Below, one piece after another: positions 7,758 through 15,853 of a DNA stretch of 15,853 bases. The notes under the pieces are model-generated. The model made no database searches, was not told where the DNA came from, and saw nothing but the letters and a program-made list of their open reading frames with translations. Within the stretch, counting starts at the first letter, position 1; every line of letters begins with the position of its first letter. The DNA comes from a virus. Lineage: Duplodnaviria > Heunggongvirae > Uroviricota > Caudoviricetes. The stretch lies in the IMG/VR virus record IMGVR_UViG_2693429700_000007. One strand, given 5' to 3'. The position numbers and the translations under genes were made by a program.

Positions 7758-8963
7758 TTACGCCGCTGCAATCTTCAGCAGTTTGATGGCCTGCGAATCG
7801 ACCAGCATGCCGCCGGTGCGCTTGGTGGTATAAAAACCGACAAACGGTTTATTGGTGTACGGGTCACGCAGAATGCGGGTACCGATACGGTCAACGATGG
7901 TGTAACCCCGTTTGAAGTTACCAAATGCAATGGCTTTCGCATCAGCGGCAATATCCGGCATCTGTTCGTTTTCAGCGATACCGTAACCCGCCAGAGAGGA
8001 CGGCTGCCCCAGCTCCAGCCCCGGACGCCACAGATAGTTACCCTCGGTGTCTTTCAGCAGACGAATGGCAAACAGGCTGTTGTTGTTCATCATGAACTTC
8101 GCGCCGGTGCGGTGTGCCTTACGCAGCGTGTAAATCAGTTTGATAATAGCATCTGCAGTCACCGTCGTCGCTTCGCCGGATACAATATGCTGAAGTTTGC
8201 CGAACGCCCGGACCTTGTCGGTTTCATCAGTGGATTCATACGCCAGGAACCCTTTCGGCTTCTTGGTACCATCGCCGGTGGTAAAGGCAATTTCTTCCTG
8301 TTCGGCAAATTCGGTTGCCAGCTCGCTGTTGATCCAGGCCTCCACGTTGAAAAAGGCATCATCCAGCATTTTCTGGGTGGCCTGCGGGTTACCGTAGATT
8401 TCCCCCATGAAAGGTTCAATCAGCCCCAGTCTGGAAGTGGCAGTCTGGGAGCGCGCGTCAGTCTCGCCAACCCATCCGGAAGCCGTACCGCCCAGATTCA
8501 CCAGTTTTTTGTAGTCGGAACCGCCAACGGTGATCACCGTGGCTTCCTGGCGCATCACCACTTCATCTTTCAGCAGGTTAAGAATGTTGCGATCCAGCGC
8601 TTCCGGCACGGCATAGCCACCGTCTTCATCGGTGCCCACCTGTAATGCCTTACGCTCCAGATCGCGCAGACCATCTTCACGGCCTTTACGCAGGAAGCCC
8701 ACAAACGCTTCTTTATGCTCGGTGGCCAGTTTATTCTGCGCACCACCTGCCGGACGTTTCAGCTCAAGCAGCTCTTTTTCAAGATCGCTTTTGAGGTTTT
8801 CCAGCTCGCTGAGTTTCCCGTTCAGGGTTTCCACCTGCCCGGCAAGTTTGCCTTTTTCCTGCTCAATCGCATCCACGCGCTTGTCGTTCTTTGCTTTGAA
8901 GTCGTCAAACTTCTGCTGCAGCTCCTGCGCGACCTGTTCGACATCTTTAATATCAACCGCCAT
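7758..8963 (-). CDS. Major capsid protein, HK97 family, with N-terminal delta (scaffolding) domain
   Basis: 401-aa ORF, ATG at 8963-8961 with AGGAGA 7 nt upstream. The N-terminal ~100 aa are Lys/Glu-rich and predicted coiled coil (…KLAGQVETLNGKLSELENLKSDLEKELLELK…), as in the HK97 gp5 delta domain. Follows directly after the prohead protease. Confidence 0.85.
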   Translation of the reverse strand: MAVDIKDVEQVAQELQQKFDDFKAKNDKRVDAIEQEKGKLAGQVETLNGKLSELENLKSDLEKELLELKRPAGGAQNKLATEHKEAFVGFLRKGREDGLRDLERKALQVGTDEDGGYAVPEALDRNILNLLKDEVVMRQEATVITVGGSDYKKLVNLGGTASGWVGETDARSQTATSRLGLIEPFMGEIYGNPQATQKMLDDAFFNVEAWINSELATEFAEQEEIAFTTGDGTKKPKGFLAYESTDETDKVRAFGKLQHIVSGEATTVTADAIIKLIYTLRKAHRTGAKFMMNNNSLFAIRLLKDTEGNYLWRPGLELGQPSSLAGYGIAENEQMPDIAADAKAIAFGNFKRGYTIVDRIGTRILRDPYTNKPFVGFYTTKRTGGMLVDSQAIKLLKIAAA

Positions 8964-8977
8964 CGTATTTCTCCTGA

Positions 8978-9628
8978 TTAGAAGTTCAGATTTTTCAGTG
9001 CATTCAGTGCAGAGCCCACATCCTCAGCGTCGCGCAGGGACAGTGCGCCATAGCCCCCGGCCATGAATGCTTTGGCCTGGGAACGGGAGAGTCCGACATC
9101 ACGCAGGACTCTTTCAATTTTTTTCTGTTCGGGGATTTCCCCGCGGGCCAGTGCGTTCTTGACGTCGCTGATCCGCGCCTCGTCGTTAGACGGGAACGTC
9201 ACCAGGCTGACTTCCCAGAGGTCGATTTCTTTCAGCAGAAAGGCTTCTTTGCTCCGGTCGTATTCCCAATCTTTCAGGACGTACCCAATAGAAAGGCCGG
9301 TTAACGAACCGGCCTTCATGTGTGCATGTGCGCGTTTTGCGAGGGGATCATCATCAATAAGCAACCGTCCCCTGACGTAAAGCCCGACATCGTCTTCCTT
9401 CATTTCGGTGTAAACACCGATGGGTTCATCCATGCGGTGCTGCCAGAGCAGCGCAGGTAACGCTTTTCTGTCACTCCACGCCCGCAGGGAAGCAGCAAAT
9501 GCCCCGGACATCACCACATCATCGTGACTGTCCTTTACACCAAAGACGGAGCCATACCCTTCAAACTCACCTGAGTCACTGACAGATTTCAGACTCAGCG
9601 GTACATCAAGACGTTGTTTCGTCTGCAT
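8978..9628 (-). CDS. Prohead maturation protease, HK97 family
   Basis: Contains …SVFGVKDSHDDVVMSGAF… and …GLSIGY…, consistent with the His/Ser catalytic residues of HK97-type prohead proteases. Preferred start is ATG at 9628 with an AAGGA Shine-Dalgarno; the first ATG at 9664 has none. The gene overlaps the 3' end of the portal gene. Confidence 0.75.
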   Translation of the reverse strand: MQTKQRLDVPLSLKSVSDSGEFEGYGSVFGVKDSHDDVVMSGAFAASLRAWSDRKALPALLWQHRMDEPIGVYTEMKEDDVGLYVRGRLLIDDDPLAKRAHAHMKAGSLTGLSIGYVLKDWEYDRSKEAFLLKEIDLWEVSLVTFPSNDEARISDVKNALARGEIPEQKKIERVLRDVGLSRSQAKAFMAGGYGALSLRDAEDVGSALNALKNLNF

Positions 9629-10847
9629 TGGCGTTATCCTTCTGCTTACCGGCTTTACTGCCATCGGAGGGTTTCGTGGTCATGTTCATCGGTGTGAGAT
9701 AGACATCCCCACCGGGACGCGGATTCATATCTTCCAGGTCGCGGCAGTCATTGGGAGAGTAAATTCCCCAGTTGATCCCGGTGGCGTAGGCTTCAAAACG
9801 GGACTTCATATCCCCGCGCAGTAACGCCCCGGCGTTAAATTTGGCGTAATAAACGCCCTGCTTACTTTTTCGTACCAGTCCGGTGTTGATCCGCTGTTCG
9901 ATGCGGGTCAGATACGGCACCAGTGAATAGTTGATAAATCCCAGCCCCAGCTCTTCGATATTGTTGAAGGTGGCGCGATCGGTGTTCTGCACCATGTGCA
10001 ACGGCACCCGGAACAGACGACAGATTTCTTCAAGCTGAAACTTGCGGGTTTCCAGGAACTGGCTGTCCTCAGCGTTCAGCGCCATCGACTTCCAGTCCAG
10101 CCCCATCTCAAGGATCATCGGGCGGTGAGCATTGCCAAGCCCGGTGTGACGCTCCTCAAAATCTTTCTTCAGGCGCTCATAAGCCTGATCCGACAGCGTC
10201 TGTTCTGTACGCAACACACCGGACGTCACCGCACCATTGCTGAACAGTCTGGCCCCGTGCTCTTCGGTCGCTGCTGCCAGCGATATTGCCTCGCGGGCAT
10301 AGGCGACGGGATTCAGTCCCACCAGACCGTCCAGCGTCAGCGTGCGCACATGCCAGATATCTTCCTGGCTCAGTACATCCGTGGAACCGTCCGGGAATGT
10401 AACCTGATAGACCGGCTCCCAGCGACTGTTAAGCTTCGGTACCACACAACCGGGATCGACGGGCAGCAGTTCAGCCACTTCGCCAAATGCTTTCACTTTG
10501 TAGGCGTAAAAGTTTCCCTTCAGGCACAGACAGGTGACCACCAGCTCCCAGAACTCCTGCGGCGTCATATAGCCATTGGGATGCATGGAGATCAGCTTAT
10601 GCAGACGTTCGCCGGTGGCCCTCTGTTTCAGGCTGCCGTTCAGGTGATACAGATTGCAGGGCAACATCCCGACCGACTCTGCCAGCACTCTGACGCAGGA
10701 AAAAACCGCCGTCAGTCGCATGGCTCGCTGACTGCTGATCTGCTTTCCGGTATAGGTGTCGTAAGACAACCCGATGGCATCCGCCAGCTCTGCTGGCGTG
10801 GTCACCGGCGCGTCACTTTTTCGTTGAAATAATCCCGAAAAGAACAC
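9606..10847 (-). CDS. Portal protein (HK97 family)
   Basis: 413-aa ORF lying between terminase large subunit and prohead protease. GTG start at 10847-10845 overlaps the stop of the preceding small ORF (TAGTG). Size and position are typical of HK97-type portals. Confidence 0.8.
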   Translation of the reverse strand: MFFSGLFQRKSDAPVTTPAELADAIGLSYDTYTGKQISSQRAMRLTAVFSCVRVLAESVGMLPCNLYHLNGSLKQRATGERLHKLISMHPNGYMTPQEFWELVVTCLCLKGNFYAYKVKAFGEVAELLPVDPGCVVPKLNSRWEPVYQVTFPDGSTDVLSQEDIWHVRTLTLDGLVGLNPVAYAREAISLAAATEEHGARLFSNGAVTSGVLRTEQTLSDQAYERLKKDFEERHTGLGNAHRPMILEMGLDWKSMALNAEDSQFLETRKFQLEEICRLFRVPLHMVQNTDRATFNNIEELGLGFINYSLVPYLTRIEQRINTGLVRKSKQGVYYAKFNAGALLRGDMKSRFEAYATGINWGIYSPNDCRDLEDMNPRPGGDVYLTPMNMTTKPSDGSKAGKQKDNANADETTS

Positions 10848-11040: not shown

Positions 11041-12798
11041 TTAAAGCGAGCGGATGCCCACGCTGACCAGATGTTCAGACAGATCCGGCTCCGGTTCACC
11101 ACCATTGACCAGCATCCGGCTCATCGCTGTAAACATCGCAACAGGGCCGTCGATTTTGGCTTCCGGCGTGGATTTATTCGGGAAGATATTGTCGTTTTTG
11201 TCCGGTTTTACCGTAACGTTAGACATCATCCAGTTCATGACCGGATGATTGCTGTGATGGAAACGTCCGGCATAGACCAGTGATTCCGTTTCCTTCATGG
11301 CCTCTGACAGATTGCGAACCGTCTGCGGAACCTCCACCAGCGGTATCCCTTCTTCAGCCAGTGCCAGGCTGAACTGCATCGCGCTCCACGGGTCAAATCC
11401 CAGTTCCCTGAGGTTTTCACCACCAATCCATTCCAGTAAGTCACTTTTTATCTGAGCATGATCGATAACATCACCATCCGTCAGAATCAGCTTATCCATC
11501 TCCGCCCACTTCCGGTAAAGTTCTGCCTGCTGCCGCGAGCATCGTTCCAGCCGTCCTTCCGGGAGCCAGAATTTAAAATCGGCATGAACATGCCCGTTAT
11601 CCGTTCGCCAGAGTTTTGCCGCCGCACAGATATCAATCTTATGAGCAAGGTCAACGCCGACCCACATGGGATACGTTTTCAGCTCATGTCGTGGGGCAAT
11701 GTATTCGCATTTCTCCCACTTAATCATGTCCATCCAGGCAGACTCGGCAGTGACCCACACATTCATGTGTTTGGTAAAAAAATTCACCCGCGCTGAAACC
11801 TGTTCCTTCGCTTTTTTCGCCAGACGACGCAGATCATCCCAGCGTTTACAGATGCCCAGGCCCGGATTCGCTTTCTGCCAGACCGTTTCATCAAACGGAT
11901 CATCTCCCTCATCGAGCGTGTAAATAATCGCAAAGTAGGAGTCGTCTTTTACCGCGCCCTCCACGTCACTGTTATAGCCTCGCAATACCTTGATGGCGTA
12001 ATCGCGTTGCTCGTAACAAATCCCTTCCTTGTTAAAGCCCGCCGTGGTGATACCAAATAACAGGGACTGCAGACGGGCACCGGTTGCCGTTTCCAGAACG
12101 TCCCACACGTCGCGGGTTTTATGTGCATGCAGCTCATCAATAATGGCGCAGTGGATGTTCAGACCGTCCAGGTTGTTTGCATCCGAGGAAAGCGGTTCAA
12201 ATTTTGATGCGCTCTGCTCCTGGTAAATCGCCAGCTTGTTGAAATCAAACAACCGCCCGAGTGTCGACCGGGCTTTTCTGACCATATTTTTGGCGTCTTC
12301 AAACACGATTCTGGCCTGGTCACGCGTGGTTGCGGCTGAATACACCTCAGCACCGCCTTCACCATCTGCCCCCGTCATATAAAGACCGATACCCGATGAC
12401 AGGGTTGATTTTGCGTTTTTACGGGCGACTTCGTTGTACGCCGTCCGGAACCGGCGCACCATCACCGGGCGTCCGCTGCCATCGCTGCGCATGACAACTT
12501 CCCCGGTCTCTTCATTCACCAGCGGAATGACAAAACCAAAAATATTAATGAGGATAAATACATGCCAGTCCATCAACTCAATGGGCTGGCCTGCCAGCGC
12601 CCCTTTTACATGAGGCACAAATTTATAGAAATTCAGGATGTGTTGTGCACGGGGTTCACTGAAATAAATCCCCCGCTCTTCGCCGTACTTCAGATCATCA
12701 AGAAAACGCTGGCAGGCCAGACGGACAAATTCGCCAGCGACAATTTCTCCTGCAACAACACGTTCGGCGTAGCGGATCCCGTCAGCCACTTTTGCCAT
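11041..12798 (-). CDS. Terminase large subunit
   Basis: 585-aa ORF, ATG at 12798-12796 overlapping the small-subunit stop (ATGA). Size, position upstream of portal and overall sequence character fit a terminase ATPase/nuclease. Confidence 0.85.
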
Positions 12799-13280
12799 CA
12801 GTCTCTCGCTTTTAAAAGCTCCGCCAGCGGATCAACATCATCCGGTCCGGTGGTATTTACTTTCGCCCGGCTTGCCGGTGACATACCAAACTCTGCAAGC
12901 ATCGCCCGGATCCGCTTCCAGGCATCCGCTTTCATTGCCGCCGCGGGGTGCGCCTTAATCAGTACATCACCACTCTGCGTTTCCGTGCGATAGGTATACC
13001 CCTCAACATCCAGTGTTTCGCAGTGATGCCGATATTCGGTGTAGGCTTCCACCAGTAACTCGAGCGCACGCGCATCAAGCTGAGAAATGATCCCTTCCGC
13101 ATTCAGCTCTTCCGCCATTCGCCTGAACCAGTACTTCCCCTGTGCCCCTAAATGCTGCGGAATTTTAGGAAGACCTTTTTCATCCTTTTTAGCGGTTTTT
13201 TTGGGGTCTTTAACGGGGCGCTTTGAGGGGTTGCCTCGTATCAAATGCAGGCGTGGCGGGGTTTTCGGGGGTCCTGACAT
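12798..13280 (-). CDS. Terminase small subunit (P27-like family)
   Basis: 160-aa ORF, ATG at 13280-13278. Basic N-terminus MSGPPKTPPRLHLIRGNPSKRPVKDPKK... is typical of P27/HK97 gp1-type small terminase subunits. Lies immediately upstream of the large subunit. Confidence 0.75.
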   Translation of the reverse strand: MSGPPKTPPRLHLIRGNPSKRPVKDPKKTAKKDEKGLPKIPQHLGAQGKYWFRRMAEELNAEGIISQLDARALELLVEAYTEYRHHCETLDVEGYTYRTETQSGDVLIKAHPAAAMKADAWKRIRAMLAEFGMSPASRAKVNTTGPDDVDPLAELLKARD

Positions 13281-13426
13281 AATCGGTCTTACCTATCAAT
13301 CGTTTGTTCACATTTCCAAAAAAGTTTTCGAACCTGCGGCGATGCGAGGAAAGGTCAGGCGGCGGTCCTGAGCAGCCTGGGTTGCAGAGATTTGACCCGC
13401 CCCTCCCCCACAGATGAGAACAGTTA
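13281..13426. other. Candidate cos region (intergenic, between HNH and terminase small subunit)
   Basis: 146-bp non-coding gap at the position where HK97-like phages carry cos. It contains the G+C-rich motif AGGTCAGGCGGCGGTCCTGAGC (13353-13374), which resembles the lambda cosN core GGGCGGCGACCT. Exact cut sites cannot be determined from sequence. Confidence 0.3.
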
Positions 13427-13777
13427 TCAGTTGATGCGTTCGCGCGCTGTTTTTGCTTTATGGCAGGACCAGCACAGACTCTGCAGGTTACTGTCTGCAT
13501 CCGTGCCACCATGAGCTTTCGGAATGATGTGGTCCACAGTTCTGGCTTCAACGGCTCTCCCATTGCGCAGGCAGTTCTGACACAGATGATTATCACGCTT
13601 CAGTATGCGCGCACGTATGGTATCCCATTTCGAACCATATCCACGCTGGTGGCGGCTCAGTCCGCGTTGATGCTGTACCCATCCTTCGCCACGATGTGTA
13701 TCACAGTAACCAGAACTGTCTGTGGTTGTATCTGCACATCCACGCTTACGACAGGCGCGTGGGATTCGTGATGGCAT
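13427..13777 (-). CDS. HNH endonuclease (terminase-associated, HK97 gp74-like)
   Basis: 116-aa ORF, ATG at 13777-13775. Cys-rich with a clear HNH motif: …VDHIIPKAHGGTDADSNLQSLCWSCHKAK…. Its position directly upstream of cos and terS matches the HNH proteins that assist HK97-type terminases. Confidence 0.85.
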   Translation of the reverse strand: MPSRIPRACRKRGCADTTTDSSGYCDTHRGEGWVQHQRGLSRHQRGYGSKWDTIRARILKRDNHLCQNCLRNGRAVEARTVDHIIPKAHGGTDADSNLQSLCWSCHKAKTARERIN

Positions 13778-13797
13778 GGAATTTCGTTCTCCGGCTA

Positions 13798-14094
13798 TTA
13801 AAGCGCTTGTCCCTCAGGGAGGATACAGATCACCCCCAACCCCGCAGCCACGGCGTACTGATTATGTTCATCGACAAGATTTATTGTGCTATCAAGTAAC
13901 TCACGACAGTGGCTTACATTCGTTTCAATGCTCAACACCAGTGAATAAGCACTATTCAACTCCTGACCTGATAAGAACGGAGAATCAGCAGAAACAATTT
14001 CCGATTTTATTTTTCGCAGAGCGCAAAGATTTTCTTCAATGCATTTTCTCAGGACAACGCAACGCCCAATCGCCTCATAGTTTTGCTCAGACAT
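13798..14094 (-). CDS. Hypothetical protein (98 aa), moron-like gene between Rz/Rz1 and HNH
   Basis: The track ORF opens with TTG at 14112. The likely start is ATG at 14094-14092 with AGGTGGG upstream. Translation MSEQNYEAIGRCVVLRKCIEENLCALRKIKSEIVSADSPFLSGQELNSAYSLVLSIETNV... has no signal peptide or TMD. The region looks lower in G+C than its flanks by eye. Confidence 0.5.
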   Translation of the reverse strand: MSEQNYEAIGRCVVLRKCIEENLCALRKIKSEIVSADSPFLSGQELNSAYSLVLSIETNVSHCRELLDSTINLVDEHNQYAVAAGLGVICILPEGQAL

Positions 14095-14119
14095 TTCACC
14101 CACCTGTTTCAAAAGTACT

Positions 14120-14584
14120 CTACTTAATGCACTGATCGCGGATATATTCCTGCAATCCCCTGATCATTTTTTCGCTGGTTGCAGCTCGCTCTCTGAGGAT
14201 GAAATAATCCCGTTGAGCGGAGTCAGTAAGTCCGGGGCTGGCTGCATCATCCACGCCGGAGGAGGCGGTGGCTTCACGCACGGCTGGACAGACTGCTCTG
14301 ATGCGCAACCGACGACGACCAGCGGCAATATCATCACGCAGAGCATCATTTTCAGCTTTCGCATCAGCTAATTCCTTTGAATATTTTGCATCGAGTGCAG
14401 CAACGTCACGCTGGCGCACCTGCATATCAGTAATGATCGCCTCTGCCAGTTTCAGCTCTCTGGCATTGTCATCGCGTTGTGTTTTGTAGGTAATGGCGTT
14501 ATCGCGGTAATGCTCTGTTGCCAGCCACAGAGCACTACAGACCATCAGCAGGACAATAATCACGCCATACAGAATTCGGTTCAT
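14120..14584 (-). CDS. Rz: i-spanin Rz
   Basis: Start ATG at 14584-14582 (MNRILYGVIIVLLMVCSALWLATEHYRDNAITYKTQRDDNARELKLAEAIITDMQ...), 1 nt after the upstream ORF stop (TGAAATG), with GGTGG Shine-Dalgarno. Closely resembles lambda Rz from memory, with an N-terminal TMD and coiled-coil periplasmic domain. The track ORF extends 17 codons further upstream, which I judge spurious. Confidence 0.85.
   Translation of the reverse strand: MNRILYGVIIVLLMVCSALWLATEHYRDNAITYKTQRDDNARELKLAEAIITDMQVRQRDVAALDAKYSKELADAKAENDALRDDIAAGRRRLRIRAVCPAVREATASSGVDDAASPGLTDSAQRDYFILRERAATSEKMIRGLQEYIRDQCIK
14164..14364 (-). CDS. Rz1: o-spanin Rz1 (lipoprotein, embedded in the +1 frame of Rz)
   Basis: MRKLKMMLCVMILPLVVVGCASEQSVQPCVKPPPPPAWMMQPAPDLLTPLNGIISS... 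has a lipobox (LVVVGC) and a Pro-rich stretch, and closely resembles lambda Rz1 from memory. Entirely nested within Rz. Confidence 0.85.
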   Translation of the reverse strand: MRKLKMMLCVMILPLVVVGCASEQSVQPCVKPPPPPAWMMQPAPDLLTPLNGIISSSESELQPAKK

Positions 14585-14585
14585 T

Positions 14586-14723
14586 TCACCACCAGCGTAT
14601 CTGACCGATGAAATAACCGGAGCCCATAACCACAAACACCAGCCAGATAAGGATGAACTTCCAGATGGATAATTTTTCAGCCATCACTCGAATCTCCAGA
14701 ATCAGTTTGCTAAAATCAAACAC
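14586..14723 (-). CDS. Small single-TMD membrane protein (45 aa from GTG; 32 aa if from the internal ATG at 14684) between the endolysin and Rz
   Basis: GTG at 14723-14721 with a strong AAAGGAGAAAAC Shine-Dalgarno. Translation MFDFSKLILEIRVMAEKLSIWKFILIWLVFVVMGSGYFIGQIRWW* has one hydrophobic helix, and its stop is 1 nt from the Rz ATG. The track's 64-aa version would run through the upstream hairpin and is less likely. Confidence 0.5.
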   Translation of the reverse strand: MFDFSKLILEIRVMAEKLSIWKFILIWLVFVVMGSGYFIGQIRWW

Positions 14724-14756
14724 GTTTTCTCCTTTAGCTTTCCCATGGGCAGAAAA

Positions 14757-14800
14757 CAAAACCCCGCTTGCTGCCAACAAACGGGGTTTTTGCTTTTATT
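14757..14800. terminator. Hairpin with flanking T-tracts (possible bidirectional intrinsic terminator) inside the lysis cassette
   Basis: Plus strand reads AAAACCCCG-(15-nt loop with internal TTG/CAA pairing)-CGGGGTTTT followed by TGCTTTTATT. On the minus strand the same stem is followed by GUUUUCUG, then the Shine-Dalgarno of the small ORF. The T-tract is better on the plus strand. Confidence 0.45.
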
Positions 14801-14880
14801 CACTTACCTTTTGCCAGTTTGCAGAATATCGTGCTATCCGCTTGTGTGAGCAAACGGCATTTTTCAGCAAAATATTCTGC

Positions 14881-15414
14881 TTATCTGTCGATCCCCCAGC
14901 ACACCAGCGCACTCTCCTGGTCACGACGAATAACCTGACCGTAACAGTTATTTGAACGAATGCGGCAATCACGGCCACCGTCCTTAATCCACCAGCGAAT
15001 CGCCTCGCATGCGCCTTTGCGATCACCGGCATTCAGCCGCTTATAAAACGTCGACGGGAAACACTTACCGGGGCCAATGTTATAGGGACAAAATGACGCA
15101 ATACCTGCTTTTTGTGGTTCGGTCAGTGGTACTTTTATATTGCGATCCACCCATGCCAGCGCCTTATCACGTTCAATAGCGTTAACCTGGTCGCATTTTT
15201 CCTTCGACAGCTTCATTCCCGGTATGACGGGCTTACCATCCACCATTGTGGCACCACGACAGATGGTCCATATGCCAGAACCATCACGGTATGCCGTTGT
15301 GTGGTTACCTTCTTTTTCATCCAGAAACTGGTCAAGTATTTGAGGAGCAGACGCGCCTGCAGCAATCAGCGCCAGAACGGCAGCTGACAGGCCGTATTTG
15401 ATTTTTGCGTTCAT
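14881..15414 (-). CDS. R: Endolysin, T4-lysozyme-like (GH24), probable SAR (signal-anchor-release) type
   Basis: 177-aa ORF, ATG at 15414-15412. Catalytic spacing E-x8-D-x5-T is present (EGNHTTAYRDGSGIWT). The N-terminus YGLSAAVLALIAAGASAPQIL is a weakly hydrophobic Gly/Ala-rich segment typical of SAR domains. It resembles phage 21 R and E. coli prophage Rrr-type lysozymes from memory. No clear Shine-Dalgarno. Confidence 0.85.
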   Translation of the reverse strand: MNAKIKYGLSAAVLALIAAGASAPQILDQFLDEKEGNHTTAYRDGSGIWTICRGATMVDGKPVIPGMKLSKEKCDQVNAIERDKALAWVDRNIKVPLTEPQKAGIASFCPYNIGPGKCFPSTFYKRLNAGDRKGACEAIRWWIKDGGRDCRIRSNNCYGQVIRRDQESALVCWGIDR

Positions 15415-15477
15415 GGATATTTATCAGAATTTACCGGTTTCTGCCCATGGACAGGTTTATCTGTTCCGGTCAGTGGC

Positions 15478-15716
15478 TTAAGGTTGCGATTCCGGAGGAG
15501 TCTTCAGAGAACAAGTAATTCTTCCCGGTAGCTTTCCTTTGTAGGTTACCCACACATTCTGCGCCTCAAAAATTATGGGGCGTTTTTCTGGCGACGGCTC
15601 ATCCCATTCACATAACCTGGCAGCAACATCCAGAAATACCTGTCTGATTCTCCTTCTGGCTGCTGCCTCATAAAACTCCAGCGCGGCACCTTCAACACGG
15701 TCCAGCGAGATGTCCA
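15478..15716 (-). pseudogene. 5'-truncated ORF upstream of the endolysin, interrupted by the IS insertion (possible DUF1327/YdfR-like gene remnant)
   Basis: The 79-codon frame ends in TAA at 15478 and its apparent ATG overlaps the first base of the IS inverted repeat (15717), so the native N-terminus lies beyond the IS. Hydrophilic, so not a holin. The family suggestion comes only from recalled gene order in E. coli Qin-like prophages. Confidence 0.4.
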
Positions 15717-15853
15717 TGAACCGCCCCGGAAATCCTGGAGACTAAACTCCCTGAGAAAGAGGTAAACAGGATGACTAAAAATACTCGTTTTTCCCCCGAA
15801 GTCCGTCAGCGGGCGATTCGTATGGTTCTGGAAAGTCAGGATGAATATGACTC
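15717..15853 (+). mobile_element. Left end of an IS3-family insertion sequence (IS629/IS1203-like), partial
   Basis: Sequence from 15717 (TGAACCGCCCCGGAAATCCTGGAGACTAAACTCCCTGAGAAAGAGGTAAACAGG-ATG) matches the left inverted repeat and leader of IS629 as I recall it. It is followed by the start of orfA; the element continues beyond the window. Confidence 0.75.
15771..15853 (+). CDS. IS3-family transposase OrfA, N-terminal fragment (partial, runs off the right edge of the window)
   Basis: ATG at 15771 preceded by GAGG; translation MTKNTRFSPEVRQRAIRMVLESQDEYD... is the characteristic N-terminus (HTH region) of IS629/IS1203 OrfA. Confidence 0.75.
   Translation, partial: MTKNTRFSPEVRQRAIRMVLESQDEYD

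Follow-up and report, generated by a model that had tools for sequence, protein, structure and literature searches.

The window, by which we mean the whole analysed stretch of 15,853 nucleotides, carries on its minus strand the late region of an HK97-like lambdoid E. coli prophage, and the open reading frame considered here (ORF98, 98 aa) lies within this region at 13798..14094 (minus strand; ATG at 14094, TAA at 13798-13800), which confirms the position and length proposed in the initial annotation. Read in the direction of the late genes, the minus strand encodes a truncated DUF1327 gene (15478-15717), a lysozyme (14881-15414), a membrane ORF of 32 aa (14586-14684) and the Rz i-spanin (14120..14584), which is the last lysis gene and forms the upstream flank of the slot; the lipoprotein gene Rz1 is embedded in Rz (14164-14364). 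ORF98 is followed on the same strand by a zinc-ribbon HNH endonuclease of 116 aa (13427..13777), a packaging-associated nuclease upstream of TerS and TerL, then by a P27-family TerS (12798-13280), TerL (11041-12798), the portal (9606-10847), the protease (8978-9664), the major capsid protein (7758-8963) and, further down, the tail genes, also on the minus strand. The flanks are thus as first described, with Rz/Rz1 upstream and the packaging genes downstream, the HNH gene coming directly after ORF98. A non-coding gap of 146 nt separates the HNH gene from TerS (13281-13426), and this is the place of cos in HK97-type genomes. The spacers on either side of ORF98 are short: 25 nt lie between the Rz stop and the ORF98 ATG (14095..14119, minus strand; the upstream edge of the insert), and 20 nt between the ORF98 stop and the HNH ATG (13778..13797, minus strand), the latter spacer carrying the HNH ribosome-binding site (RBS) GGAGAA. 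The 20-nt spacing is common to most E. coli relatives, and in other subfamilies the gene overlaps the HNH start by 13-32 nt.

Some features farther upstream in the window were recorded as well. The DUF1327 ORF is considered N-terminally truncated because only profile positions 38-92 were matched, and an IS-like ORF on the plus strand starts at 15772 (MTKNTRFSPEVRQRAIRMVLESQ...), which resembles orfA of IS3-family transposases; the arrangement (window 15478-15853) suggests that the late region was interrupted 5' of the lysis genes by an inserted IS element. Inside the late operon, a terminator-like hairpin (14758-14790, minus strand; 15 pairs and then GTTTTCTG) is located in the 196 nt that separate the lysozyme gene from the 32-aa ORF/Rz. 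The 32-aa ORF (MAEKLSIWKFILIWLVFVVMGSGYFIGQIRWW) is hydrophobic and stops 1 nt short of the start codon of Rz; four related loci (L002, L017-L019) share it with 91-100% conservation, and in KFu019 an ORF of 37 aa is annotated at the same position.

ORF98 is a genuine protein-coding gene that is conserved and under purifying selection. Its RBS (14097..14106, minus strand) reads CAGGTGGGTG, with the Shine-Dalgarno sequence AGGTGGGTG located 5-12 nt 5' of the ATG, and both start and RBS are conserved among the homologues. The sense frame is open in all 14 of the 14 homologues, whereas the antisense frames contain stops in most of them, and the pairwise dN/dS values range from 0.12 to 0.5 (mostly about 0.3, compared with about 0.1 for the neighbouring HNH gene). 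The identical protein is recorded in E. coli and in three IMG/VR contigs. In PHROGs v4, ORF98 matched phrog_4827 (E 2.9e-30, 105.6 bits) with its residues 1-91 on positions 1-91 of the 96 positions of the profile. Two other gene models were discarded: the TTG start at 14112 (104 aa), annotated in one NCBI record, because every homologue starts at MSE(Q/R)NYE, and an antisense ORF of 137 aa (13722-14135, plus strand), the open frame of which is not conserved.

The base composition of ORF98 is atypical for the window. Its G+C content of 0.441 (0.523 for the window) is the lowest of the 21 genes and falls at the 2.2nd percentile among all 297-nt windows, and the global G+C minimum of the window (0.40) begins at 13855, within the gene. 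The synonymous codon log-odds of ORF98 are -0.036, compared with 0.01-0.19 in other genes, and its codon use is the second most atypical in the window. The stretch had been noted at the outset as looking richer in A+T than its surroundings, and this impression was borne out, the gene being distinguishable from its flanks in G+C and in codons.

Sequence features and predicted fold of the ORF98 protein

With a pI of 4.7 and a net charge of about -6, the ORF98 protein is acidic, and the same is true of almost all members of its family; the HNH endonuclease encoded downstream is basic (pI 9.9, charge +11). Inspection of the ORF98 sequence revealed neither a membrane segment nor a signal peptide or lipobox, and its maximum Kyte-Doolittle(19) value is 1.44, in agreement with the cytoplasmic type of protein that had been proposed. 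AlphaFold, when supplied with 45 sequences, predicted a helix (residues 3-35), a beta-hairpin (40-47), a second helix (50-84) and a flexible tail of 14 residues (pLDDT 92.1); with 11 sequences the model was a plain two-helix hairpin (pLDDT 84.7). The invariant or near-invariant residues are located at the start of helix 1 (N5, Y6, I9, G10, R11 and C12) and at the end of helix 2 (E76, N78, A81 and A84), and to judge from the antiparallel topology of the model they would meet at the open end of the hairpin.

ORF98 found no match in Pfam (E <= 1), NCBIfam or PADLOC-DB 2.0 (E <= 10), the 18 aligned family members had no Pfam match at E <= 10, and a sequence profile search of the PDB returned chance matches only (E >= 0.09). 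There was no informative fold match for ORF98, and the fold is generic. The initial statement that the protein could be placed in no family therefore holds for Pfam, NCBIfam and PADLOC and does not hold for PHROGs, in which phrog_4827 was matched; this family is present there without a function, has no Pfam or NCBIfam model and contains no characterised member. The helix/beta-hairpin/helix model shares its coiled-coil topology with the prefoldin beta subunit, which is a structural analogue only; neither ORF98 nor the 18 members matched the prefoldin models of Pfam.

The interval between Rz and the HNH gene in related prophages

The content of the slot was surveyed in 80 IMG/VR loci that were picked by HNH similarity (88-99% identical to the HNH of the window), 75 of which were informative. 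The slot was empty in 34 of the 75 loci (about 45%), and here 42-43 nt separate the HNH ATG from the end of the last lysis gene, which is Rz or, in an M15-peptidase cassette, a spanin-type lipoprotein. Other loci contained YfbU together with an 88-aa ORF (15 of 75), a 66-aa ORF with a GNAT gene (6 of 75), ORFs of 66 and 79 aa (5 of 75), iss/bor (2 of 75) or ORF98 (7 of 75). The 62/66-aa and 79-aa ORFs were also among the slot contents of sibling E. coli prophages, and such prophages carry iss/bor between Rz and the HNH gene on the strand opposite to the late genes. Because the slot is empty in 34 of the 75 loci, ORF98 is additional DNA that separates two genes which are neighbours in relatives. 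The variable contents of the Rz-HNH interval, iss/bor included, therefore identify it as a cargo-exchange site and literally as the bor/iss site; the comparison with the position of bor in lambda, made from the sequence at the beginning, thus proved apt.

ORF98 DNA was detected in 32 of 5426 complete E. coli genomes, and 16 of these 32 occurrences are a 170-nt remnant; the one remnant inspected adjoins intact HNH, TerS and TerL genes. About 840 E. coli records match an HNH-Rz query at 90% identity or more, and in the 11 of them listed the match is to the HNH gene. When the loci were ranked by HNH identity, those with and those without ORF98 were interspersed: the HNH of the window is 96-97% identical to the HNHs of ORF98-negative loci and 87-92% identical to those of other ORF98-positive loci. 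With its presence in 7 of 75 loci and 32 of 5426 genomes, half of the latter being remnants, ORF98 is therefore optional inserted cargo, and it is optional in this phage lineage. A core lysis or packaging gene would be present wherever its module is; ORF98 is absent from most loci with the same HNH-TerS-TerL genes, in combination with either lysis cassette.

Ten other slot proteins (including the 98-aa ORF of ESC818, the 66-, 62-, 79- and 88-aa ORFs, GNAT and YfbU; iss was not included) were compared with the ORF98 family profile, and none was significant. The 88-aa ORF that accompanies YfbU (L038:3035-3301, WP_001100260.1) ends in ...YEHNKAGW, which recalls the EHNxYA motif of ORF98; its similarity to the ORF98 profile was not significant (E 0.15 in the 11-sequence test). 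The 42-nt spacer of the empty junctions (L094:2459-2500 and 24 similar loci) contains CTTTATCGTGGTAAACATTTCGCAGGGTATG, in which, by eye, the codons for LYRGKHFAGYG in the 66-aa slot gene can be recognised. If this reading is right, the empty junctions arose when earlier cargo was deleted.

In two Yersinia prophage loci (L045:1551-1835 and L046:1566-1847) the lysis-to-HNH interval contains a gene of 93-94 aa with the Acb2_Tad1_hairpin domain (PF24729). The members of this family are anti-CBASS/anti-Thoeris nucleotide sponges, and if the Yersinia hairpin genes are such sponges, the slot is used by known anti-defence genes. The Acb2/Tad1 protein is of hairpin type, with about 94 aa, and resembles ORF98 in size and in its location in the lysis-to-HNH interval, but kinship was rejected (hhalign probability 0.1% against the member from the Yersinia prophage; the 18 ORF98-family members without Pfam match). 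The early suggestion of a role in host fitness, defence or anti-defence thus gained no direct support, as PADLOC yielded no match and the Acb2/Tad1 hairpin is unrelated.

The phrog_4827 family and its genomic neighbours

The profile search retrieved 51 clusters (90% identity), all of them hypothetical and none with a Pfam domain, from Escherichia, Citrobacter, Cronobacter, Klebsiella, Enterobacter, Salmonella, Serratia and Yersinia, and more distant members of the ORF98 family came from Xenorhabdus, Morganella and Halomonadaceae. The match of ORF98 to phrog_4827 extends over the full length of the profile, so that this is its own family, and a Serratia relative also matches the profile. An exhaustive search of 1.8 billion representatives found nothing beyond the small ORF98 family (two of its hits, P0019 and P0021 with 1279-1395 aa, were put down to the composition of helical repeats and discarded), and no homologue was detected in 50,697 deposited phage genomes (megablast with ORF98 DNA; tblastn with ORF98, P0015 and P0014). 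The longer members P0018, P0031 and P0047 showed no informative extra domain in a Pfam search. In the literature, we found no paper on the ORF98 family or on the three-gene cluster associated with it (see below).

The most constant neighbour of the family in Enterobacterales is the HNH gene, and this persistent coupling had escaped mention in the initial annotation. In 34 of the 39 fetched loci the HNH start lies within -32 to +29 nt of the ORF98-family gene on the same strand; among the remaining five, one has an insertion of about 300 nt before the HNH gene and four have no HNH gene nearby. The coupling holds in loci in which TerL and portal are only 30-38% identical (TerL 34-38%) and the lysis cassette is of another type. 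In the longer members, the C-terminal motif [HY]A[TA]EN[AT] corresponds to the HNH start MPPRTP read in another frame (in part by eye), and the overlap with the HNH start is therefore conserved. The link to HNH is strong only within Enterobacterales, and co-inheritance could explain it.

The arrangement recalls the Group 4 partners of Xu & Gupta 2013 (PMC3592412), which like ORF98 are small ORFs directly upstream of a zinc-ribbon HNH gene by cos, TerS and TerL. Those partners, however, have CxxC, CxxxC or HxxC zinc-ribbon motifs (PMC3592412), whereas ORF98 has a single invariant Cys and is predicted to form a helical hairpin; this Cys is C12, and the family conserves no motif of paired Cys/His residues.

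In prophage loci of Serratia, Yersinia, Cronobacter and Salmonella, and in L010 and L035, the family gene is preceded by a cluster of three genes, which encode an MptE-like protein (phrog_4603, 'alpha-2,3-sialyltransferase'), a protein of about 290 aa (phrog_6804) and a Methyltransf_23 protein (phrog_6564). The cluster lies between the lysis genes and the family gene (L041:1971-4004, L043:1952-3981, L045:1959-4004, L047:1974-3991 and L010:2932-4991). The ATG of the family gene overlaps the methyltransferase stop by 4 nt in Serratia and Yersinia, and a gap of about 10-20 nt is found in Cronobacter and Salmonella. The cluster looks like a glycan or other modification module.

Other contexts were seen in distant members. 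In Morganella morganii a member of 101 aa (L016:5001-5306; MTEKNYEAIGRC...) is located between the major capsid and head-tail connector genes and not beside an HNH gene. Four distant members (L011:3761-5291, L012:3901-5291, L013:3873-5291 and L014:2972-4461) directly follow antirepressor-like genes with Bro-N, P22_AR_N or KilA-N N-terminal domains, and the neighbours in Halomonadaceae (Bro-N or P22_AR_N) appear by eye to share a C-terminal region; antirepressor-like genes are thus another recurrent neighbour, besides the HNH gene. With these contexts in Morganella and Halomonadaceae, the family therefore moves from one inter-module gap to another.

Expression and probable nature of ORF98

A moron in the strict sense is an autonomous insert (the Hendrix/Juhala definition). 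ORF98 is co-oriented with the late operon, its start only 25 nt 3' of Rz and its stop 20 nt 5' of the HNH ATG. A simple consensus scan detected no sigma-70-like site in 13200-15853 (2.7 expected by chance) and no terminator-like site in 13200-14750 or in the 20-nt ORF98-HNH spacer, and the spacer between Rz and ORF98 is too short to hold a promoter. Neither a promoter nor a terminator of its own was thus found for ORF98; the RBS is the only expression signal of its own that the window copy has, and the gene layout is most economically read as expression with the late transcript. The designation as a moron, which the initial annotation had introduced, consequently stands in part: ORF98 is inserted, optional, rare, low in G+C and atypical in its codons, its composition differs from that of the flanks, and it is an extra gene between two genes adjacent in related phages, as the definition is also quoted in PMC3252337. 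The autonomy is what it lacks, given the strand shared with the late genes, the tight spacing and the failure to find promoter- or terminator-like sites.

In six ORF98 loci in which the upstream neighbour is not Rz (L004:3900-4003, L005, L008, L020, L021 and L028), the gene is preceded by a conserved leader of about 85 nt, in which TGCGATAAT (extended -10-like) comes after a strong extended hairpin (-40 kcal/mol, z -4.3). The leader may serve the cassette as a promoter or as an RNA element. The window copy and KFu019 do not have it, and similarity to the leader loci begins about 20 nt before the ATG.

ORF98 shares the Rz-HNH interval with lambda bor and E. coli iss, and both are optional cargo. 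Bor/iss, however, is a unit of its own on the opposite strand and encodes a lipoprotein, whereas ORF98 is on the strand of the late operon, no promoter or terminator signal was found for it, and its sequence is unrelated. The Pfam search (E <= 1) showed no homology of ORF98 to Bor/Iss, and its sequence has no signal peptide, lipobox or hydrophobic N-terminus.

Several explanations were weighed. It is extremely improbable that ORF98 is a non-functional chance or decayed ORF in filler DNA; although Pfam and NCBIfam contain no matching family, the window holds many chance ORFs of comparable length and fragments make up 16 of the 32 E. coli occurrences, the reading is already contradicted by the conservation data, i.e., a frame open in 14 of 14 homologues with dN/dS below 0.5, a conserved start and RBS, a PHROG match at E 3e-30, an AF2 pLDDT of 92 and invariant residues that are kept down to 26% identity. 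A classical bor-like moron would be expressed from the repressed prophage and provide host fitness, superinfection exclusion or anti-phage defence. [quoted passage not shown] Because of the late-gene strand, the tight spacing and the missing export signals (signal peptide, lipobox and membrane segment), however, a bor-like role in lysogenic conversion is less likely, and as no promoter- or terminator-like site was found at the window copy, only 25 nt from Rz, and PADLOC gave no match, we regard it as improbable. ORF98 might also be the last survivor of a four-gene modification operon (MptE-like/sialyltransferase-like, phrog_6804, Methyltransf_23 and then the ORF98-family gene), in which it would have been a regulatory or scaffolding subunit that is now an orphan in E. 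coli and perhaps decaying. In Serratia, Yersinia, Cronobacter, Salmonella, L010 and L035 the three genes do precede the family gene, in the first two of these with a 4-nt overlap between the methyltransferase stop and the ATG of the family gene, the longer members constitute most of the 51 clusters, and half of the E. coli copies are remnants; yet the E. coli and MHKPNYEH subfamilies lack the three genes and are nevertheless under purifying selection (dN/dS about 0.3), and the members from Morganella, Xenorhabdus and Halomonadaceae lack them too, which leaves this origin very improbable.

The chief competing explanation sees in ORF98 a dedicated partner for the HNH endonuclease, a non-essential modulator in the form of an acidic adaptor, chaperone or inhibitor. 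Translational coupling would let it be produced immediately ahead of the basic nuclease, whose nicking it would tune or hold back until the terminase-cos complex has assembled. The adjacency (-32 to +29 nt in 34 of 39 loci) is kept while ORF98 identity falls from 100% to about 28%, spans Xenorhabdus, Serratia, Yersinia, Cronobacter and Citrobacter, and survives where TerL and portal are only 30-38% identical; the overlap with the HNH start MPPRTP is conserved in the longer members, and the charges are complementary (-6 for ORF98, +11 for HNH). On the other hand, most close HNH homologues have no ORF98, the HNH of the window is nearer to those of ORF98-negative loci (96-97%) than to those of ORF98-positive ones (87-92%), ORF98 has decayed beside an intact HNH gene, and the members in Morganella and Halomonadaceae are not beside HNH. 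Furthermore, in vitro the HK97 system does not require such a factor (PMC9410871), phage HNH nickases are reported to be non-toxic in E. coli (PMC3592412), and adjacency within one order is explicable by co-inheritance, so that a dedicated partnership appears possible but rather unlikely. A bolder proposal for the whole phrog_4827 family names it either a regulator of HNH-assisted cos cleavage or else a late-expressed anti-defence protein, and the two taken jointly are unlikely. In the regulator version, an acidic prefoldin-like oligomer, translationally coupled to HNH, would hold the nuclease or deliver it to the terminase; in the anti-defence version, the protein would shield packaging proteins from host sensors, and the data leave the latter version about equally unconstrained.

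On balance, we consider it probable that ORF98 is a dispensable, late-expressed, protein-binding cargo gene at the junction between the lysis genes and HNH-TerS-TerL of an HK97-like E. coli prophage with a P27-type terminase. Its DNA would have been inserted as optional cargo between the lysis cassette and the packaging module, and in lytic growth its transcription would be that of the late operon, in which it stands between Rz and HNH, and not that of an independently expressed lysogenic-conversion gene. The product would be a small acidic cytoplasmic protein with a helix/beta-hairpin/helix fold, which most likely acts by binding another macromolecule, probably as an oligomer, and it may bind through the conserved patch that the beginning of helix 1 would form together with the end of helix 2; it is the predicted fold and the conservation pattern that suggest a protein binder. 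Packaging and cos cleavage of HK97 in vitro need only TerL, TerS, gp74 and proheads (PMC9410871), and because HK97 has been reconstituted without such a factor and most relatives are without the gene, ORF98 is not part of the core lysis or packaging machinery. Counting against simple cargo is the closeness of the HNH start (-32 to +29 nt) in 34 of 39 loci, which makes a functional tie possible, and against expression from the late transcript only, the possible promoter motif TGCGATAAT in the leader of the six other loci.

ORF98 is an ordinary kind of phage cargo gene and not a new kind of system, and it adds to the familiar class of optional small genes at the module junctions of temperate phages. 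Its context shows that cargo is frequently exchanged between Rz and HNH in HK97-like E. coli prophages, with at least six alternative contents. The only element that might surprise specialists is the start/stop overlap of phrog_4827 with the packaging HNH gene, conserved across Enterobacterales; if this coupling is functional, the family would provide a new component for the poorly understood HNH-terminase step of cos cleavage.
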